From: Naegleria gruberi
Taxonomy: Eukaryota
DNA length: 9,800 bases
NCBI GenBank assembly: GCA_000004985.1
Contig: GG739032.1
Reading direction: 5' to 3' (one strand)
A program made the position numbers and the translations under genes. This document shows, in pieces, positions 2,030-9,800 of the stretch; position 1 is the first letter of the stretch, and each line of letters begins with the position of its first letter. A model generated the notes under the pieces. That model was not told where the DNA came from. It saw nothing but the letters and a program-made list of their open reading frames with translations, and did not search any database.

Positions 2030-2041
2030 GTTTCAATTACA

Positions 2042-2239
2042 ATGCATGTCGATGATGATTGTAATATTGTGGTGAATGCTCTGGTGAAAGATATTAAAAA
2101 ACAAATTAAAATGACAAAGTACGATAGAACTCTCTCTAGAGAAGAACAATTAAAGATGATTGAAGATAGCTATTCCTTGGGAGTGAATTTGCCAGTCATT
2201 TACAAAACAACTATAGATGGTTTAGAGGAATTGGATTAA
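2042..2239 (+). CDS. Hypothetical small ORF (65 aa from the first ATG after the gap). May be a 3' fragment of a gene whose 5' end lies in the gap, or spurious.
   Basis: Open frame from the gap to TAA at 2237..2239. No recognisable domain. Charged and Lys-rich composition. Ends 30 bp before the left inverted repeat. Confidence 0.15.
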   Translation: MHVDDDCNIVVNALVKDIKKQIKMTKYDRTLSREEQLKMIEDSYSLGVNLPVIYKTTIDGLEELD

Positions 2240-2269
2240 AGACATGTTTATTTCTCAACAAGCATACTT

Positions 2270-2335
2270 TTGTTACACGCCACAATTTCCGCGTGGCTTT
2301 TACGCCAAAATTTCCACTCCCGAAAATTCTCGCGT
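2270..2335 (+). repeat. Left terminal inverted repeat with subterminal direct repeats (AATTTCCGCGTGG at 2283..2295 and AAATTCTCGCGTGG at 2322..2335).
   Basis: Aligned by eye to the reverse complement of 3828..3899. 13/13 match at the tip. Roughly 36 of the first 45 positions match, allowing one indel. Confidence 0.6.
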
Positions 2336-2663
2336 GGTTTACAAACGCAGAAATGACCTTAATAGGACATTAATACAAGTTGTAATTAAGCTTAATAAAT
2401 TGAAGGGCATCCAACCACTGATGAGTTTAATATATTGTATATTGAACATTATTCTCCTATTACAAAACCAAAGAGTTGAAAAAATATAATCTCTACTTTG
2501 ATGATTTTTATCATGAGGAAGATATCTTGTTCCGAGAAATTAATACCACTCATTAATCATTACCTTTAAGCAAAGAGAGTGTAATTTCCTGTGAAAATAA
2601 TATTAACTCTTGTATTTATTAAATACAGTATTACACCTTGTAGTATTGTTAATACTTTAATAC

Positions 2664-2695
2664 GGAGAAAATCTCCTTAAAATGAGATTTTCTCC
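2664..2695. repeat. Perfect 12-bp-stem hairpin: GGAGAAAATCTC, then CTTAAAAT, then GAGATTTTCTCC.
   Basis: Arm 2664..2675 is the exact reverse complement of arm 2684..2695, with an 8-nt loop. Lies inside the TIR element. Confidence 0.7.
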
Positions 2696-2913
2696 TAAGG
2701 TCCAAATAAGGGTTGGATTCACACTACCTTAACCGAAAAGACATCATCTACTAATTTTATTATTTAAACTATGAATGGTGGAATGTGAGCAAAGCAATTA
2801 ATATAGATTGAAATAAACGCACCAAGAATAAAACAAATTGAAAATTTATTGAAAATTGTTTTGAATCAAGGTTGAAAATCAGCAAGATTTCCGACCATGA
2901 AATTTACCATGTT

Positions 2914-3780
2914 GGAAAATTCACTGTTTGTGAATTTTATTGATGGTGCGATGATGATGACCTTAAATATATTTTCCTTAATGATCGGAAGTGAACTTGT
3001 TGATGATATTGATGATAAAAGATATGATGAAGTGAAAATTCCACAACTCGATGAATACTAAGTGGAAAAATTCCAACTCTCTTGATGGTGATATTAGACA
3101 TCCCTACTAATGATACTATGTTGTTGAAATTCAATCGTCATGATGAAAATATATGGTGAATGATGAATACACCACCAACAAGGTGAAAACTCCAAATATC
3201 CAAAAACTATTATTCGGAGTGTTGTTGAAGATATATTTGAATAGTACTATTCGAAGAAAGTTTGGAAGATGATGAAGTACATGTTGAGTTGTGGCATATG
3301 TATATTTTCAAAATATACATGATTGATGAAATGAGAAGATGAATTCCTGCTATTGATATTGGTGATACTATAGAGTATTGCCAACAATCCCTAATTGAAG
3401 AAATTCCTAGTGAACAAGTAAATCTCCTGATGAGGATGATATTATGAGAAATTTGTAATTTCACCCTATTACAACTACTAAGGGAGATTTCAATTGCTCA
3501 AATTACTAGTAATATAATAATAAATATACTGCGATGATGAATTTCAGCTTAATGATGATGTTTGGAAGTTTGAAAATTCCGATGATAGAAAATATTCCGA
3601 GAAGAAGAACTACCATAAAATATTGCTATAATTACTATTGGTGAGATGTAGCCCAGCTACTATAATTGAAATATTCCAATATGATGATGATTTGATTGAA
3701 TTAAATACCAATGATGATGAGTGGAGGTATTTTTTAAAAGTAATGAGAGAGGACATTCAAAACAAATTAGGATTCCGAAA
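2914..3780. repeat. Degenerate array of units carrying (G)AAAATTCC-like and GATGATGA-like cores. Either decayed tandem repeats or a decayed coding region.
   Basis: AAAATTCC-like cores at about 2916, 3036, 3068, 3127, 3185, 3344, 3401, 3571, 3591, 3671, 3771. GATGATGA and variants occur at least 12 times in 2940..3720. All frames are interrupted by stops. Confidence 0.5.
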
Positions 3781-3827
3781 TGGAGAGTTTAATTTCCTTA
3801 TTGGATTTTCTAATAAGGGTTCGAAAA

Positions 3828-3899
3828 AGTGGCGTGGCTTAATAACGCCAAGAATTTTTTGGCGTGGATTTTCACGCGAGAAATTCTGGCGTGTAACAA
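3828..3899 (-). repeat. Right terminal inverted repeat (GTGGCGTGGCTT ... TTGGCGTGGATTTTCACGCGAGAAATTCTGGCGTGTAACAA).
   Basis: Reverse complement matches the left end. Internal GGCGTGG / CACGCG sub-repeats mirror those of the left end. Confidence 0.6.
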
Positions 3900-4039
3900 T
3901 TATTATCATATTGAATTCAATTCTAAAACAATAAAATTGATACCAGATGTATATCAGTGTGACTAAATGTATCTGGTAAAGTTACATGATGTTTGGATAT
4001 ACTTTCATTGAGACAGTGTGTACAATTGGATATCTGTTG

Positions 4040-4159
4040 AAAAGTTCACGCCGCTTTTTTGCAATGCTTCCTCAAACAATAGAATGCTCCCTTTTCCCGC
4101 CAATAAAAACCGTTTGGATTGTAAAAATGATAAAATTCTGTTCACTGTGAACGTGTAAC
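4040..4159 (-). repeat. Third, degenerate copy of the TIR-end sequence, in the same orientation as the right TIR. It lies immediately upstream of the transposase ATG.
   Basis: 4132..4159 AAAATTCTG-TTCACTGTGAA-CGTGTAAC matches right-TIR tip AAATTCTGGCGTGTAAC, except for an 11-bp insertion that creates the palindrome GTTCACTGTGAAC. Upstream, AAAAGTTCACGCCGCTTTT (4041..) and CTTTTCCCGCCAATAAAAACC (4091..) resemble the subterminal blocks AAAAGTGGCGTGGCTT and GCTTTTACGCCAAAATTTCC. Confidence 0.4.
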
Positions 4160-4177
4160 TTCTATTCAAATATTCGT

Positions 4178-5761
4178 ATGGATGAACGGTTAGAATTAAT
4201 CAAAATGAAAAGAAAGAACGGAGACGCCTCCAGCACTAACAAAAAACAAGCTACACTCGATGGCTTTGTTACCTCCAATCAACAAAATAGCCAAGATCAG
4301 CAATCAAGCCAACTCAGTCCATCCAACGGCCAAAACCTAACACCTAAATACTCTGCTAAGCAGTTGGATGATGAAACTGATTGGATAGCATCTTTATTCA
4401 ATTTTAACAAAGAAGGATTTGAAAAGGTTTCTTCCAACATTGTGTATCCTAAAATTACCGAAACTCCTACCACTCCTAAAACCATTCTGAGAAATGTAAC
4501 TTGCACTGAGGTCAGCCTTGAACTTCTAATTTCAAACATGATTCCAAACCACTTTTGGCAAATACTATTGGACATATTAAACACTAACTTGACCAGAGAG
4601 AGTACAACTGGAAAAGCATCTTCACACTCAAAGTATTACAATGATATTGATATCTCTCAGCTTTTCTCTTTTTTGGGAACTGTAATTAGCTTAGAAAACA
4701 ACCATTCAAAGTTGAATGCCAATGCCAAAACCAATTTACAACAGCTTCGTGCAGAAAAGTTGGATAGCATGATTCCTGGTTATAGAAGATACTTTTCTTT
4801 GATGAAATGTTTTGCTCCTTCTGACCAACAATTTGAATTGATTTCAACAGCATTAAACGATATCACTTTAAATGCTGTTACAATTGGTTCCAATTTTGTT
4901 GTGGACGAAACAGTGTATGCATATCAGATTTCCTCAATCGTTAAAGCAGAGGCTGAACTCTTGCAATGTCCAATTCCAGTAGTGTACATTCCAAGAAAAC
5001 CATATCCAAATGGACTTATGTCGTATAAGTTGTGTGTACTATTTCCTGGATGTAGGAAACCTTATGTTTTAGCCATCCTTCCTCAATACAAAGTTCCTAT
5101 GGATTCCCCTCAGGAAGCAATGTTAAAATTGTTGAAAATGGTTCGTGAATGTACTGATCAAAACTTGCATATTACTGGTGATGCTGCATTTGGTTCATTC
5201 ACTATCTTTGATGAGCTAATCAAATTGAATGTTGTTGGCACTTTCTCTATTTCAGGTACTGAAAAGTCATGGATCTGGGATTTGTTGAAGAGAACACTCA
5301 CTCATGGTAATTGGAAGGCTGCTGAATTTATTTCAAAATCTGTGATCGCTTCTATGCAAAGAAATCCTCAATACCAATCAGACAGAGACAAGAAATATCA
5401 CCATCTTGTTTCGAATGCATTTGATTTTGAAACCTCACCAATTTCACTGCCAACCATTTCAGCAAACTCTTGCAAATATTCTACCTCCTTTTTGCAGAAA
5501 AATACGGTGGAAAAATTGAAAGAAATTGGAAAGAAGGAACATATCAAATTAAGTAAGCTCACTAAGGATGAAATCATCCAGAAGATTCAATTTATTTGCA
5601 ACTCCACAAATGTCAAATCACTTCAACTACATGCTTTGCATTCGTTTGATCAGAATCAATTTAACGCTACCTCTGCTATCCATCATGACCATTATAGACG
5701 TACTTTTAATCTTGTCGACATTCAAGATAAGTACCATTATAAGGCTAGATATGCCTATATC
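4178..5761 (+). CDS. piggyBac-family (DDE_Tnp_1_7-like) transposase. N-terminal 528 aa with intact DDD catalytic triad. C-terminus lies in the gap.
   Basis: Uninterrupted 528 codons. Blocks align to T. ni piggyBac transposase as I recall it. LFSFLGTVI matches IYAFFGILV. YRRYFSLMKCF matches DRFDFLIRCL. VVDET (D243, nt 4904..4906) matches TIDEQ (D268). VYIPRKPYPNGLMSYKLCV matches VYIPNKPSKYGIKILMMCD. ITGDAAFGS...VVGTFS (D335, nt 5180..5182) matches ITCDNWFTS...IVGTVR (D346). YRRTFNLVDIQD (D514, nt 5717..5719) matches YNQTKGGVDTLDQ (D447). Confidence 0.8.
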
Positions 5762-8176
5762 NNNNNNNNNNNNNNNNNNNNNNNNNNNNNNNNNNNNNNN
5801 NNNNNNNNNNNNNNNNNNNNNNNNNNNNNNNNNNNNNNNNNNNNNNNNNNNNNNNNNNNNNNNNNNNNNNNNNNNNNNNNNNNNNNNNNNNNNNNNNNNN
5901 NNNNNNNNNNNNNNNNNNNNNNNNNNNNNNNNNNNNNNNNNNNNNNNNNNNNNNNNNNNNNNNNNNNNNNNNNNNNNNNNNNNNNNNNNNNNNNNNNNNN
6001 NNNNNNNNNNNNNNNNNNNNNNNNNNNNNNNNNNNNNNNNNNNNNNNNNNNNNNNNNNNNNNNNNNNNNNNNNNNNNNNNNNNNNNNNNNNNNNNNNNNN
6101 NNNNNNNNNNNNNNNNNNNNNNNNNNNNNNNNNNNNNNNNNNNNNNNNNNNNNNNNNNNNNNNNNNNNNNNNNNNNNNNNNNNNNNNNNNNNNNNNNNNN
6201 NNNNNNNNNNNNNNNNNNNNNNNNNNNNNNNNNNNNNNNNNNNNNNNNNNNNNNNNNNNNNNNNNNNNNNNNNNNNNNNNNNNNNNNNNNNNNNNNNNNN
6301 NNNNNNNNNNNNNNNNNNNNNNNNNNNNNNNNNNNNNNNNNNNNNNNNNNNNNNNNNNNNNNNNNNNNNNNNNNNNNNNNNNNNNNNNNNNNNNNNNNNN
6401 NNNNNNNNNNNNNNNNNNNNNNNNNNNNNNNNNNNNNNNNNNNNNNNNNNNNNNNNNNNNNNNNNNNNNNNNNNNNNNNNNNNNNNNNNNNNNNNNNNNN
6501 NNNNNNNNNNNNNNNNNNNNNNNNNNNNNNNNNNNNNNNNNNNNNNNNNNNNNNNNNNNNNNNNNNNNNNNNNNNNNNNNNNNNNNNNNNNNNNNNNNNN
6601 NNNNNNNNNNNNNNNNNNNNNNNNNNNNNNNNNNNNNNNNNNNNNNNNNNNNNNNNNNNNNNNNNNNNNNNNNNNNNNNNNNNNNNNNNNNNNNNNNNNN
6701 NNNNNNNNNNNNNNNNNNNNNNNNNNNNNNNNNNNNNNNNNNNNNNNNNNNNNNNNNNNNNNNNNNNNNNNNNNNNNNNNNNNNNNNNNNNNNNNNNNNN
6801 NNNNNNNNNNNNNNNNNNNNNNNNNNNNNNNNNNNNNNNNNNNNNNNNNNNNNNNNNNNNNNNNNNNNNNNNNNNNNNNNNNNNNNNNNNNNNNNNNNNN
6901 NNNNNNNNNNNNNNNNNNNNNNNNNNNNNNNNNNNNNNNNNNNNNNNNNNNNNNNNNNNNNNNNNNNNNNNNNNNNNNNNNNNNNNNNNNNNNNNNNNNN
7001 NNNNNNNNNNNNNNNNNNNNNNNNNNNNNNNNNNNNNNNNNNNNNNNNNNNNNNNNNNNNNNNNNNNNNNNNNNNNNNNNNNNNNNNNNNNNNNNNNNNN
7101 NNNNNNNNNNNNNNNNNNNNNNNNNNNNNNNNNNNNNNNNNNNNNNNNNNNNNNNNNNNNNNNNNNNNNNNNNNNNNNNNNNNNNNNNNNNNNNNNNNNN
7201 NNNNNNNNNNNNNNNNNNNNNNNNNNNNNNNNNNNNNNNNNNNNNNNNNNNNNNNNNNNNNNNNNNNNNNNNNNNNNNNNNNNNNNNNNNNNNNNNNNNN
7301 NNNNNNNNNNNNNNNNNNNNNNNNNNNNNNNNNNNNNNNNNNNNNNNNNNNNNNNNNNNNNNNNNNNNNNNNNNNNNNNNNNNNNNNNNNNNNNNNNNNN
7401 NNNNNNNNNNNNNNNNNNNNNNNNNNNNNNNNNNNNNNNNNNNNNNNNNNNNNNNNNNNNNNNNNNNNNNNNNNNNNNNNNNNNNNNNNNNNNNNNNNNN
7501 NNNNNNNNNNNNNNNNNNNNNNNNNNNNNNNNNNNNNNNNNNNNNNNNNNNNNNNNNNNNNNNNNNNNNNNNNNNNNNNNNNNNNNNNNNNNNNNNNNNN
7601 NNNNNNNNNNNNNNNNNNNNNNNNNNNNNNNNNNNNNNNNNNNNNNNNNNNNNNNNNNNNNNNNNNNNNNNNNNNNNNNNNNNNNNNNNNNNNNNNNNNN
7701 NNNNNNNNNNNNNNNNNNNNNNNNNNNNNNNNNNNNNNNNNNNNNNNNNNNNNNNNNNNNNNNNNNNNNNNNNNNNNNNNNNNNNNNNNNNNNNNNNNNN
7801 NNNNNNNNNNNNNNNNNNNNNNNNNNNNNNNNNNNNNNNNNNNNNNNNNNNNNNNNNNNNNNNNNNNNNNNNNNNNNNNNNNNNNNNNNNNNNNNNNNNN
7901 NNNNNNNNNNNNNNNNNNNNNNNNNNNNNNNNNNNNNNNNNNNNNNNNNNNNNNNNNNNNNNNNNNNNNNNNNNNNNNNNNNNNNNNNNNNNNNNNNNNN
8001 NNNNNNNNNNNNNNNNNNNNNNNNNNNNNNNNNNNNNNNNNNNNNNNNNNNNNNNNNNNNNNNNNNNNNNNNNNNNNNNNNNNNNNNNNNNNNNNNNNNN
8101 NNNNNNNNNNNNNNNNNNNNNNNNNNNNNNNNNNNNNNNNNNNNNNNNNNNNNNNNNNNNNNNNNNNNNNNNNNNN
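5762..8176. other. Assembly gap (2415 N)
   Basis: Run of n characters. ORF-track entries 4178..8179, 5568..8951 and 5745..8216(-) are translations of N and are artifacts apart from their real flanks. Confidence 0.99.
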
Positions 8177-8177
8177 T

Positions 8178-8951
8178 AGATTCGTTGGAGAAGATCACAT
8201 GAAATTTGAAACTCACTTTTTAACTATATTATCAAATAAGAATTATAGATATTATTACAATAATATGAGAGCTCAATTTGAGAATAACAACATTACAATC
8301 CAAGGTGGAATGAAAAATTCTGGAAAGAGACAATTATTTACTTTTATTTCATCAAGTACTACTCTTAATCATATTGCAACATTTGACACAAACACTGTCT
8401 TGGTTTCTGAACGGTCTATAATGGAGAGAAAACAACAAGATGTCTCCATTTCCACATTTAAAAAGGAATCTATTAATTCTAACTTGATTTCCTTCTCGTT
8501 TGTTGATATATCAACAGTTAACAATCAATCAATTTCCTATACATTCCATTTAAATTCAACAAGAAAGTTAAATACCTTAAGAGAATATTCATGTATTGTT
8601 GTGAAGAATTATACCCAAATTCTTAGACAGAATGATTGTTCTCTATCTATTGATGGCCACTTATTAACATGTAAATGTACTTCCATTCAAAATAATTCTC
8701 AAATTGCCATTCTTACTACTGAATATTCAGAAGATACAACTCAATCGTTAACTACTCAATCAAGTAACAACTTGCTTTACCTTCTATTCCTGTTATTGTT
8801 GATCATATTAATAGGTATTGCAATAGTTGGGGTTGTTGTGGTTCCTGTTATCATTGTGTTGGTCAAGAGAAAACAAAAGAAACCAAAAGAAGTTGTAAAC
8901 TCTGTTGAACTACCAACAGCAGTTCATAATTTGTGGCTAGAAACAAAATAG
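8178..8951 (+). CDS. Partial (5' end in gap) type I membrane glycoprotein, paralogous to the 1..1692 protein. Four-Cys module (about nt 8583..8720). TM (about nt 8772..8864). 28-aa Lys-rich tail.
   Basis: Frame open from the gap edge to TAG at 8949..8951. Contains EYSCIVV...C...TCKC...IAIL, then a 31-residue hydrophobic stretch LLYLLFLLLLIILIGIAIVGVVVVPVIIVLV, then KRKQKKPKE. Same Cys spacing and same Cys-to-TM distance as the ORF at 1..1692. The first in-frame ATG after the gap (8199) gives no signal peptide, so the true start is probably inside the gap. Confidence 0.55.
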   Translation, partial: RFVGEDHMKFETHFLTILSNKNYRYYYNNMRAQFENNNITIQGGMKNSGKRQLFTFISSSTTLNHIATFDTNTVLVSERSIMERKQQDVSISTFKKESINSNLISFSFVDISTVNNQSISYTFHLNSTRKLNTLREYSCIVVKNYTQILRQNDCSLSIDGHLLTCKCTSIQNNSQIAILTTEYSEDTTQSLTTQSSNNLLYLLFLLLLIILIGIAIVGVVVVPVIIVLVKRKQKKPKEVVNSVELPTAVHNLWLETK

Positions 8952-8974
8952 AGTTCATCAAGGTTTTCTCATAT

Positions 8975-9060
8975 TCTTCAGAACTTTTGTCTAAAAATAT
9001 TTTTCCAAGATTTGCAATAAAACCAAAGAGGACTAACCACATGAAACACAAACAATTCAA
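8975..9060 (+). promoter_or_regulatory. Candidate core promoter for the polyubiquitin gene. GAACT (8981..8985), A/T-rich TCTAAAAATATTTTT (8990..9004), and Inr-like AAACAATTCA (9050..9059) about 22 bp before the ATG.
   Basis: The motifs resemble the GAAC element and the AAAAATTCA initiator described for Entamoeba core promoters. The intergenic distance is only 129 bp. Motif matching was by eye only. Confidence 0.2.
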
Positions 9061-9080
9061 GAAAAAAGCAGTTAACAACA

Positions 9081-9539
9081 ATGCAATTATTCGTCAAGAC
9101 ACTTACTGGAAAAACCATCACATTGGAAGTTGAATCAAATGATTCAATTGAGAATGTTAAAAGAAAAGTTCAAGATAAGGAAGGTATTCCACCAGAACAA
9201 CAAAGACTCATCTATGCTGGTAAACAATTGGAAGATGGCAGAACGATCAATGATTACAATATTCAAAAAGACTCTACTCTTCACTTGGTATTGAGATTGA
9301 GAGGTGGTATGCAACTCTTTGTTAAAACCCTAACTGGAAAGACAATTACAATTGAAATGGAATCAAATGATACTATTCAAAATATGAAACAAAAGATCTT
9401 TGATAAGGAAGGTATTCCATCTGATCAACAAAGATTGATTTATGCAGGTAAACAATTAGAAGATGGAAGACAACTCTCCGATTACAATCTTCAAAAGGAT
9501 TCAACAGTTCATTTAGTTTTGAGATTGAGAGGAGGTTAA
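9081..9539 (+). CDS. Polyubiquitin with two head-to-tail ubiquitin repeats (9081..9308 and 9309..9536). Each ends LRLRGG. Stop falls directly after the second GG.
   Basis: Two 76-aa units, [14 protein letters not shown]...[12 protein letters not shown]...[10 protein letters not shown]6, K11, K27, K29, K33, K48, K63, I44, H68, V70 and R72 are present in both. Repeat 1 has about 11 differences from canonical ubiquitin and repeat 2 about 20. The repeats differ from each other at 15 residues and at many synonymous sites. Confidence 0.9.
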
Positions 9540-9608
9540 TATTCTAGCTCCATTTTCGAAATTCATTAAATAAAGTGTTACTACTCATACTCATAGCTTC
9601 TGTGATTA

Positions 9609-9800
9609 CCTTTCCAAATCCAATAGTGGATCTTCAAAGTCTTCCTTCAAAATATGATTAATCCGTTTCAAATCTAGAGGTGATAAATGATTACCAAGTA
9701 GGGAGACTTCTTTTAATCTTGGCATTTTGAGAAGGAAATCAACGAGTGATGAATTAAGATAGCAATCATCCAATGCTATTTCTCCAAATATTAAATGATA
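9609..9800 (-). CDS. C-terminal 64 codons of a leucine-rich-repeat-like protein that continues beyond the right window edge. Stop codon at 9606..9608 on the minus strand.
   Basis: Reverse-complement translation from 9800 is YHLIFGEIALDDCYLNSSLVDFLLKMPRLKEVSLLGNHLSPLDLKRINHILKEDFEDPLLDLER, then stop. LKEVSLLGNHLSPLDL fits the LxxLxLxxNxL LRR consensus. It falls one codon under the length cutoff of the supplied ORF track. Convergent with the ubiquitin gene; the two stop codons are 66 bp apart. Confidence 0.35.

Follow-up and report, generated by a model that had tools for sequence, protein, structure and literature searches.

A transposon-like, non-coding insertion with mirrored half-site arrays on an unplaced scaffold of Naegleria gruberi

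In the piggyBac transposon of Trichoplusia ni, a 13-bp terminal repeat is accompanied by palindromic inverted TGCGT(c/a)AA motifs, in which TGCGT and ACGCA lie 7 bp apart and which are bound by the C-terminal domain of the transposase (PMC5861402). Ginger transposons and Gypsy retrotransposons share another hallmark, ends that start with TGTNR (PMC2836005). The mobile elements of the protist Naegleria are poorly described so far: Kolobok, MuDR and DIRS-like elements have been reported for N. gruberi or Naegleria, and CMC-EnSpm, piggyBac and Gypsy repeats for N. lovaniensis, at low abundance in both cases. Here we analyse an entire unplaced N. gruberi scaffold of 9.8 kb (hereafter the window), made up of three contigs (1-1979, 2030-5761 and 8177-9800) with two gaps (50 N after the first contig and 2.4 kb after position 5761), and in particular a segment of 1,630 nt (2270-3899) that is delimited by an inverted repeat, by the alignment of its two arms and by the end of homology to a related strain. 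Judged from its sequence, the stretch 2271-3898 has about an even chance of being a complete copy of a non-autonomous class II DNA transposon with terminal inverted repeats (TIRs), encoding nothing itself. A preliminary description of this DNA had likewise proposed a non-autonomous TIR element, and the inserted-like, non-coding and TIR-bounded character of the segment agrees with it, as does a breakpoint between strains at the left tip; its further comparison with the MITEs (miniature inverted-repeat transposable elements) of hAT or Mutator-like type is not supported, as discussed below.

The observation is real because of the layout of motifs in the two arms, and not because of the perfect 13-mer at their tips. 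Each arm of ∼75 nt carries five half-sites of the type [CGT]GCGT[GTA] which, when read from the tip, follow the same series of alternating orientations, at offsets of 7, 21, 32, 62 and 75 nt on the left and of 7, 22, 34, 51 and 64 nt on the right, the last two of the right arm thus lying 11 nt nearer the tip. The half-sites of the left arm (2270-2349, + strand, tip TTGTTACACGCCA, 46% GC versus 30% in the interior) are CACGCC at 2276 (-), CGCGTG at 2290 (+), TACGCC at 2301 (-), CGCGTG at 2331 (+) and AACGCA at 2344 (-), with a degenerate CACTCC at 2316, while those of the right arm (3825-3899, - strand as read from the tip, same tip, 43% GC) are located at 3888, 3873, 3861, 3844 and 3831. Adjacent half-sites pair as palindromes of the forms CACGCC-N8-10-SGCGTG and GCGT-N7-9-ACGC. 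The two arms hold 10 of the 13 GCGT-type half-sites of the window (five each), and seven of its nine GCGTG/CACGC cores (1.4 expected) fall inside these two 80-nt stretches. In shuffled sequence, four such cores never fell within a single 80-nt stretch (0/2000), and clusters of GCGT-type motifs were found in none of the other intergenic regions of the window. The architecture of the arms is far beyond chance. The AATTTC(T)CGCGTGG block, described earlier as present twice at each end, is found twice in the left arm (2284-2296 and 2323-2337) and not in this form in the right one.

As first reported, positions 2270-2282 are the exact reverse complement of 3887-3899 (13/13), and the match continues inward to 19 of 20 positions without gaps, or 25 of 27 with one 1-nt indel. 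A perfect inverted repeat of 13 nt is at chance level by itself, the longest ones in first-order Markov shuffles of the window's 7.3 kb of real sequence usually measuring 12-14 nt, and an unrelated pair of perfect inverted 14-mers is also present in the window. The plain match/mismatch score of the arms (42) was reached by about a quarter of the shuffles, and a composition-aware score that gives more weight to the rare G/C matches (37.6 bits) by 5 out of 200 (p ∼0.025). Further inward, the similarity of about 80% over 50-70 bp that had been proposed turns out to be too high, as the alignment is gapped past the first 27 columns (indels of 11 and 2 nt): over 70 nt it comprises 50 matches in 83 columns (∼60% of columns), and the inner part of the arms (28-90 nt) is modestly above the shuffles (33/2000). 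The arms are thus alike in design, yet non-identical past 27 nt, as would be the case if one element had a left and a right end distinct from each other, and unlike a recent inverted duplication.

A comparison with a closely related strain provides an independent boundary. A protein from an ENA metagenome (P0010) shares a 90% cluster with the HSP70-like protein NAEGRDRAFT_48082 of N. gruberi (P0008), to which it is 98.7% identical, and is carried on a contig (L025) whose positions 1341-1581 are collinear with 2030-2270 of the window at 99.2% identity, 2 of the 241 nt being mismatched. Beyond this point the two sequences diverge: the window reads ...GCATACTTT|TGTTACACGCC... across the junction and L025 reads ...GCATTCTTT|GACAGATTTTACAAATGGG..., and the left tip coincides with this end of homology to within 0-2 nt (2270/2271). 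Based on this comparison, the left tip is a genuine boundary between DNA shared by the two strains and DNA that is found in the window only, being absent at that place from a near-identical strain, with position 2271 as the most likely start of the inserted DNA (TGTTACACGCC...). Since L025 sets the start at 2271 and the right end follows by symmetry, we consider 2271-3898 as the candidate element.

The 105 nt of L025 that follow the breakpoint (GACAGATTTTAC...) occur nowhere in the window, including directly after 3899, so that the sequences to the left and right of the segment do not together make up a single target site. It follows that a target-site duplication (TSD) is not to be expected, and that its absence is uninformative on mechanism or age. 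The preliminary description had found no matching direct flanks apart from a trivial TT, as we do when reading the flanks for direct repeats at both ends, and it took this to mean that the element may be old, may use a mechanism without TSD or may have slightly different true boundaries. At the empty site, L025 diverges from the window at the left tip, and its continuation does not resume after the right one. Duplications of TA, TTA/TAA or TTAA that arise when the boundary is shifted inward to CACGCC were rejected as evidence, as the TA is automatic from a palindromic dinucleotide within the inverted repeat and TTA/TAA are inverted rather than direct. At the very end of L025, positions 1660-1686 (GCGTCGATGGTTTAGTGGTAGAATACG) resemble the 5' half of a transfer RNA (tRNA) gene; ARAGORN and Rfam gave nothing for this stretch, which is cut off by the contig end. 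Should it indeed represent a tRNA, the insertion site would be located ∼79 bp upstream of its gene, and in the compact genomes of protists mobile elements classically find a safe haven at such positions.

The interior of the segment (2350-3824, + strand) is non-coding and AT-rich, and its longest open reading frame (ORF) measures 98 aa. Its open pieces contain no Pfam domain, and their concatenation on the + strand, used as a query against 5.8 billion proteins, retrieved no homologue, only the flanking HSP70-like piece being matched. By tblastn, the interior shows no similarity to the neighbouring genes or to the transposase, of which it might have been a decayed copy. Nor does it contain an Rfam family (all hits being far below threshold), a tRNA or a tandem array (Tandem Repeats Finder gave three trivial 2-copy repeats only). 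The interior has a marked strand asymmetry, with GATGA occurring 25 times on the + strand versus once on the - strand, and a positive GC skew. The bias in GATGA/TGATGA and the GC skew are opposite to those expected from the strands on which the neighbouring genes are encoded. Translated in shifting frames, the open pieces give peptides rich in Asp. The strand bias could reflect a heavily decayed coding region or a degenerate array of motifs. A cluster of C/D-box small nucleolar RNAs (snoRNAs), which came to mind because of the 25 GATGA and six weak Rfam C/D hits on one strand, was rejected. In such snoRNAs, a terminal stem accompanies a box C (RUGAUGA) that is paired with a box D (CUGA). There is hardly any box D here, with 2 CTGA on the + strand of the interior versus 17 box-C-like sites (20 matches to TGATG[A/T]), and terminal stems are lacking apart from a single candidate with a stem of 2 bp. 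Two strong local palindromes were also observed, one at 2664-2695 (GGAGAAAATCTC-N8-GAGATTTTCTCC) with a perfect 12-bp stem, which is the top inverted repeat of the window under composition-aware scoring, and a second at 3298-3320 (ATGTATATTTT-C-AAAATATACAT).

If 2271-3898 is a non-autonomous transposon copy, its right tip would mark the second end of the mobile unit. The right arm looks like an end and not like an internal site, as it is complete and outward-facing, ends in the identical 13-nt tip and has the same five-site layout. The present right flank would then derive from another locus, brought in by recombination or assembly collapse between copies, by an adjacent deletion starting from the element end, or by a second insertion abutting the first. 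All of these are common around transposons, and such an extra event fits the character of the scaffold, which is unplaced and gapped and carries a duplicated gene fragment as well as a duplicated transposase gene. The mobility of the element would depend on a transposase supplied in trans, which would recognise the 12-13-nt tips (TGTTACACGCCA) and bind as multimers to the five alternating GCGT/ACGC half-sites of each ∼75-nt arm, then pair both ends, cleave the DNA at the tips and insert the segment at another place. This enzyme is presumably a DDE transposase; the neighbouring piggyBac-like protein described below is one candidate, and an enzyme of the Ginger/integrase type is another, given that the ends read TGTTA...TAACA. 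No ORF of the integrase-like type was found on the scaffold.

Several observations weigh against this interpretation. The alignment score of the tips by itself is only marginally significant, no TSD was found at the ends of the segment, and the right junction lacks the support of L025, as the sequence after 3899 differs from the continuation of the empty site and an extra event is required to account for it. With 1,630 nt, the segment is also large for a MITE, these elements being usually under 800 bp. Furthermore, no second copy was found among the viral and metagenome contigs scanned: the pattern TTGTTACACGCCANAATTTC had 0 hits in viral contigs, and the 21 hits of the pattern TTGTTACACGCCN{7,10}CGCGTG in metagenome contigs, all of them in bacterial contigs of 41-65% GC, showed no similarity beyond the pattern and were discarded as chance matches. 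A literature search found no description of the element 2271-3898. Finally, all of the DNA from 2271 up to the contig end at 5761, if not further, is foreign to the L025 site and never rejoins its sequence; the simplest reading of the comparison is one of a larger insertion.

That larger insertion would be an autonomous transposon starting at 2271, including the piggyBac-like transposase gene and ending inside the 2.4-kb gap. The "right arm" 3825-3899 would in this case represent transposase-binding sites clustered internally in inverted orientation, or a relic of rearrangement, ∼280 bp upstream of the gene. The transposase is indeed multi-copy, and internal copies of the end-binding sites, as well as palindromes with a GCGT core, are a known feature of the piggyBac family. 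Yet the right arm is no short internal site, given its complete, outward-facing layout, and a non-coding leader of 1.9 kb would be unusual. The junction and the empty site in L025 are both devoid of TTAA, the defining target of piggyBac, and a complete relative of the transposase with 36% identity (P0002, on contigs L022-L024) lies between ordinary genes without terminal repeats or GCGTG clusters. On balance we find a larger autonomous element unlikely, though it is the alternative to be taken most seriously.

The transposase gene itself deserves a closer look. The spacer that separates it from the segment (3900-4177, + strand, 278 nt upstream of the ORF) contains no TTAA, and has one isolated CACGCC (4047) and a 9-mer TCCCGCCAA (4095-4103); a degenerate left end at 4041-4052 (GTTCACGCC) was considered, but a single isolated motif is unconvincing. 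The ORF (4178-5761, + strand) runs into the 2.4-kb assembly gap and encodes a divergent piggyBac-like DDE transposase with a SAP-like insert. It has a twin that is 97% identical (NAEGRDRAFT_80349, P0001) on a scaffold of 395 kb. Its match to PF13843 (DDE_Tnp_1_7) is below threshold (E=0.0013), while its relatives P0002, P0003 and P0007 carry this domain, and a profile of the family matches the piggyBat transposase (E=0.005) and the SAP domain of Ku70 (1jjr_A, E=1e-5). By these matches the gene belongs, distantly, to the piggyBac superfamily. The SAP-like module (…FLQKNTVEKLKEIGKKEHIKLSKLTKDEIIQKI…) is located at ∼aa 440-500 (∼5495-5680), between the second and third catalytic acidic residues, and one relative (P0004) has a precomputed PF02037; a SAP insertion may be unusual in an enzyme of the piggyBac type. 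The 9-mer TCCCGCCAA, which resembles an E2F site, precedes the MKRKN start by ∼80-110 nt in N. gruberi as well as in the 36%-identical metagenomic relative (L022 ∼1563-1571), and the neighbours of the latter are conserved in three samples, without terminal repeats. Together, the upstream 9-mer, the conserved neighbours and the lack of terminal repeats hint at possible host regulation or domestication of this gene family in some lineages.

The neighbouring transposase is a candidate for the enzyme acting on the arms, either in trans or in cis linkage. A more specific proposal is that the arms are the ends of this SAP-bearing member of the piggyBac superfamily, that it would integrate at sites other than TTAA, perhaps upstream of a tRNA gene, and that arrays of GCGT half-sites would have replaced the single repeat bound by the cysteine-rich domain. 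We regard this as a long shot, but if true it would represent a piggyBac-related transposon with a changed target rule. TTAA specificity is regarded as invariant in the piggyBac superfamily.

A very unlikely alternative is that the segment is the solo long terminal repeat (LTR) of a Gypsy-type retrotransposon, i.e. a non-coding unit of 1.6 kb with the ends TGTTA...TAACA left behind by LTR-LTR recombination. With the start at 2271 as defined by L025, the ends do fit the Gypsy pattern TGTNR...YNACA, the interior is non-coding and strand-asymmetric, and Gypsy elements have been reported in the sister species N. lovaniensis. A solo LTR does not, however, explain the mirrored series of five binding-site-like motifs over ∼75 nt of each arm, the similarity of the two ends of an LTR normally being limited to a few to ∼20 nt. 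There is also no duplication of 4-6 bp, no primer-binding site after 3899 and no polypurine tract before 2271, and the visible part of the scaffold contains neither gag/pol nor a second, direct copy.

Equally far from convincing us, and if anything more doubtful, is the idea that nothing here is mobile and that the arms are two clusters of sites for a host DNA-binding protein (regulatory, boundary or recombination sites) placed around a non-coding region that separates the HSP70-like fragment from the transposase-like gene. The motif clusters are, after all, the statistically strong feature, palindromic pairs of half-sites would suit dimeric factors, and a gene starts 280-350 bp downstream of the right cluster. 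Such a function would not account for the identity of the 13-nt tips and the 25/27 identity, which cover positions outside the motifs too, nor for arms that are mirror-imaged relative to the tips, nor for a left tip that is a presence/absence breakpoint between strains, and elsewhere between the genes of the window the motif does not cluster. An inverted repeat that arose by chance in AT-rich intergenic DNA is compatible with the 13-mer and the plain alignment score, which are both within the range of shuffled sequence; it is argued against by the composition-aware score, and effectively refuted by the motif clustering that no shuffle reproduced and by the independent homology breakpoint at the left tip.

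The remainder of the scaffold has the character of a repeat-type context, with an unplaced and gapped assembly, a piece of a gene that is complete on a 537-kb scaffold and the transposase twin on a 395-kb one. The first gene (gene A, 16-1692) encodes a single-pass membrane protein rich in Ser/Thr/Ile and is an orphan, having matched only itself in the set of 5.8 billion proteins. The left flank of the segment (2030-2269, + strand) starts at a contig edge with the 3' piece of the HSP70-like gene (2030-2239, + strand; the last 69 codons and the stop), followed by 30 nt of 3' flank up to the tip of the element. This piece is 100% identical to the C-terminus of NAEGRDRAFT_48082, of which the full gene is on the 537-kb scaffold and the first 407 residues are absent from the window. 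The partial gene is explained either by a haplotype-specific insertion contig, by a partial duplication carried along with the element or by a scaffolding problem; a simple haplotig is argued against by the adjacent gene A, which is unique to this scaffold. Beyond the large gap, the 3' end of a gene A-like gene (8178-8951) encodes another single-pass, Ser/Thr/Ile-rich membrane protein, whose only common feature with the product of 16-1692 is a short juxtamembrane motif containing Cys (blastp E=0.33). The gene model NAEGRDRAFT_76570 (P0009, 721 aa, 4205-8951), which spans the 2.4-kb gap, is consequently an annotation artefact that fuses the transposase ORF with the C-terminal part of an unrelated membrane protein. 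The last gene of the window (9081-9539) encodes a di-ubiquitin and consists of two units of 228 nt that are 76% identical in DNA, both somewhat diverged from canonical ubiquitin.

If confirmed, the segment would add one more characterised family of DNA transposons, with insertion polymorphism at the strain level, and would explain why this 9.8-kb scaffold stayed unplaced in the assembly. It would go beyond ordinary repeat annotation only if the divergent piggyBac-like transposase next to it turns out to act on its ends.

When the segment is compared to the established superfamilies of DNA transposons, assignment to hAT, Mutator or CACTA fails each time on the termini, on the duplication or on both. 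The earlier label of a hAT or Mutator-like MITE is not supported, given tips that read TTGTTA/TGTTA and not YARNG, the lack of a duplication of 8-11 bp and a length of 1.63 kb, which exceeds that of a typical MITE. For hAT, the flanks GCATACTT and TTATTATC mismatch where an 8-bp TSD would be required, an argument weakened by the flanks being non-collinear, which leaves the non-YARNG tips. Mutator-like elements have long TIRs (often >100 bp) and a duplication of 9-11 bp, versus high identity limited to 27 nt and no such duplication here. CACTA/CMC elements have CACTA(G) termini and a duplication of 2-3 bp; here the first CAC lies 6-7 nt inside the tip, and if the element ended at CACGCC it would be flanked by TTA and TAA, an inverted and not a direct repeat. 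Membership in piggyBac fails on the absence of a TTAA insertion, as the nearest TTAAs are at 2236 and 4196 and the empty site in L025 reads CATTCTTT|GACAG.

The likenesses are found rather in the overall design. As in Ac/Ds (hAT) and in En/Spm and dSpm (CACTA), a short perfect tip is combined with subterminal motifs in both orientations, here within ∼80 nt. The resemblance to the non-autonomous Ds and dSpm extends to left and right ends that are alike but non-identical and to the lack of coding capacity, and a perfect TIR of 13 nt is also found in En/Spm; the segment differs from Ds/Ac and dSpm/En-Spm in having termini other than CACTA or YARNG, no detected duplication of 3 bp or 8 bp and a length of 1.63 kb. 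With Ginger1 and Ginger2 (Tdd), it shares the length of its arms, ∼75 nt being within the 40-270-nt range of Ginger TIRs, and the ends TGTTA at 2271 and TAACA at 3894-3898 (start as defined by L025) fit TGTNR, a pattern of 5 nt that was matched after the fact. In contrast to Ginger, no duplication of 4-5 bp is seen (the flanks being non-collinear), and the insertion site is not CCGG or RTATAY.

The closest likeness in architecture is to piggyBac of T. ni, in which palindromic internal repeats, built of a GCGT/ACGC core around an AT-rich spacer, likewise come after a 13-bp terminal repeat. The stretch GGCGTAAAAGCCACGCG (minus strand of 2290-2306) agrees at 12 of 17 positions with the piggyBac sequence TGCGTAAAATTGACGCA, PMC5861402 giving the half-site motif and its 7-bp spacing only. 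In both, the spacing of the half-sites differs between the two ends, and here a transposase gene of the same superfamily is situated 280 bp away. Unlike in piggyBac, the tips do not start with CCC, each arm has five half-sites instead of one 19-bp repeat, and the relative P0002 of the neighbouring transposase has no C-terminal cysteine-rich domain, the reader of TGCGT in piggyBac. A piggyBac element carries a PF13843 transposase inside; the gene here, with its own weak match to that domain and relatives that carry it, is found outside of the inverted-repeat segment. Altogether, this is a real insertion of transposon-like, non-coding DNA whose ends are well formed and whose left tip is a breakpoint between strains, and it is probably of a known kind, that of the non-autonomous TIR elements.

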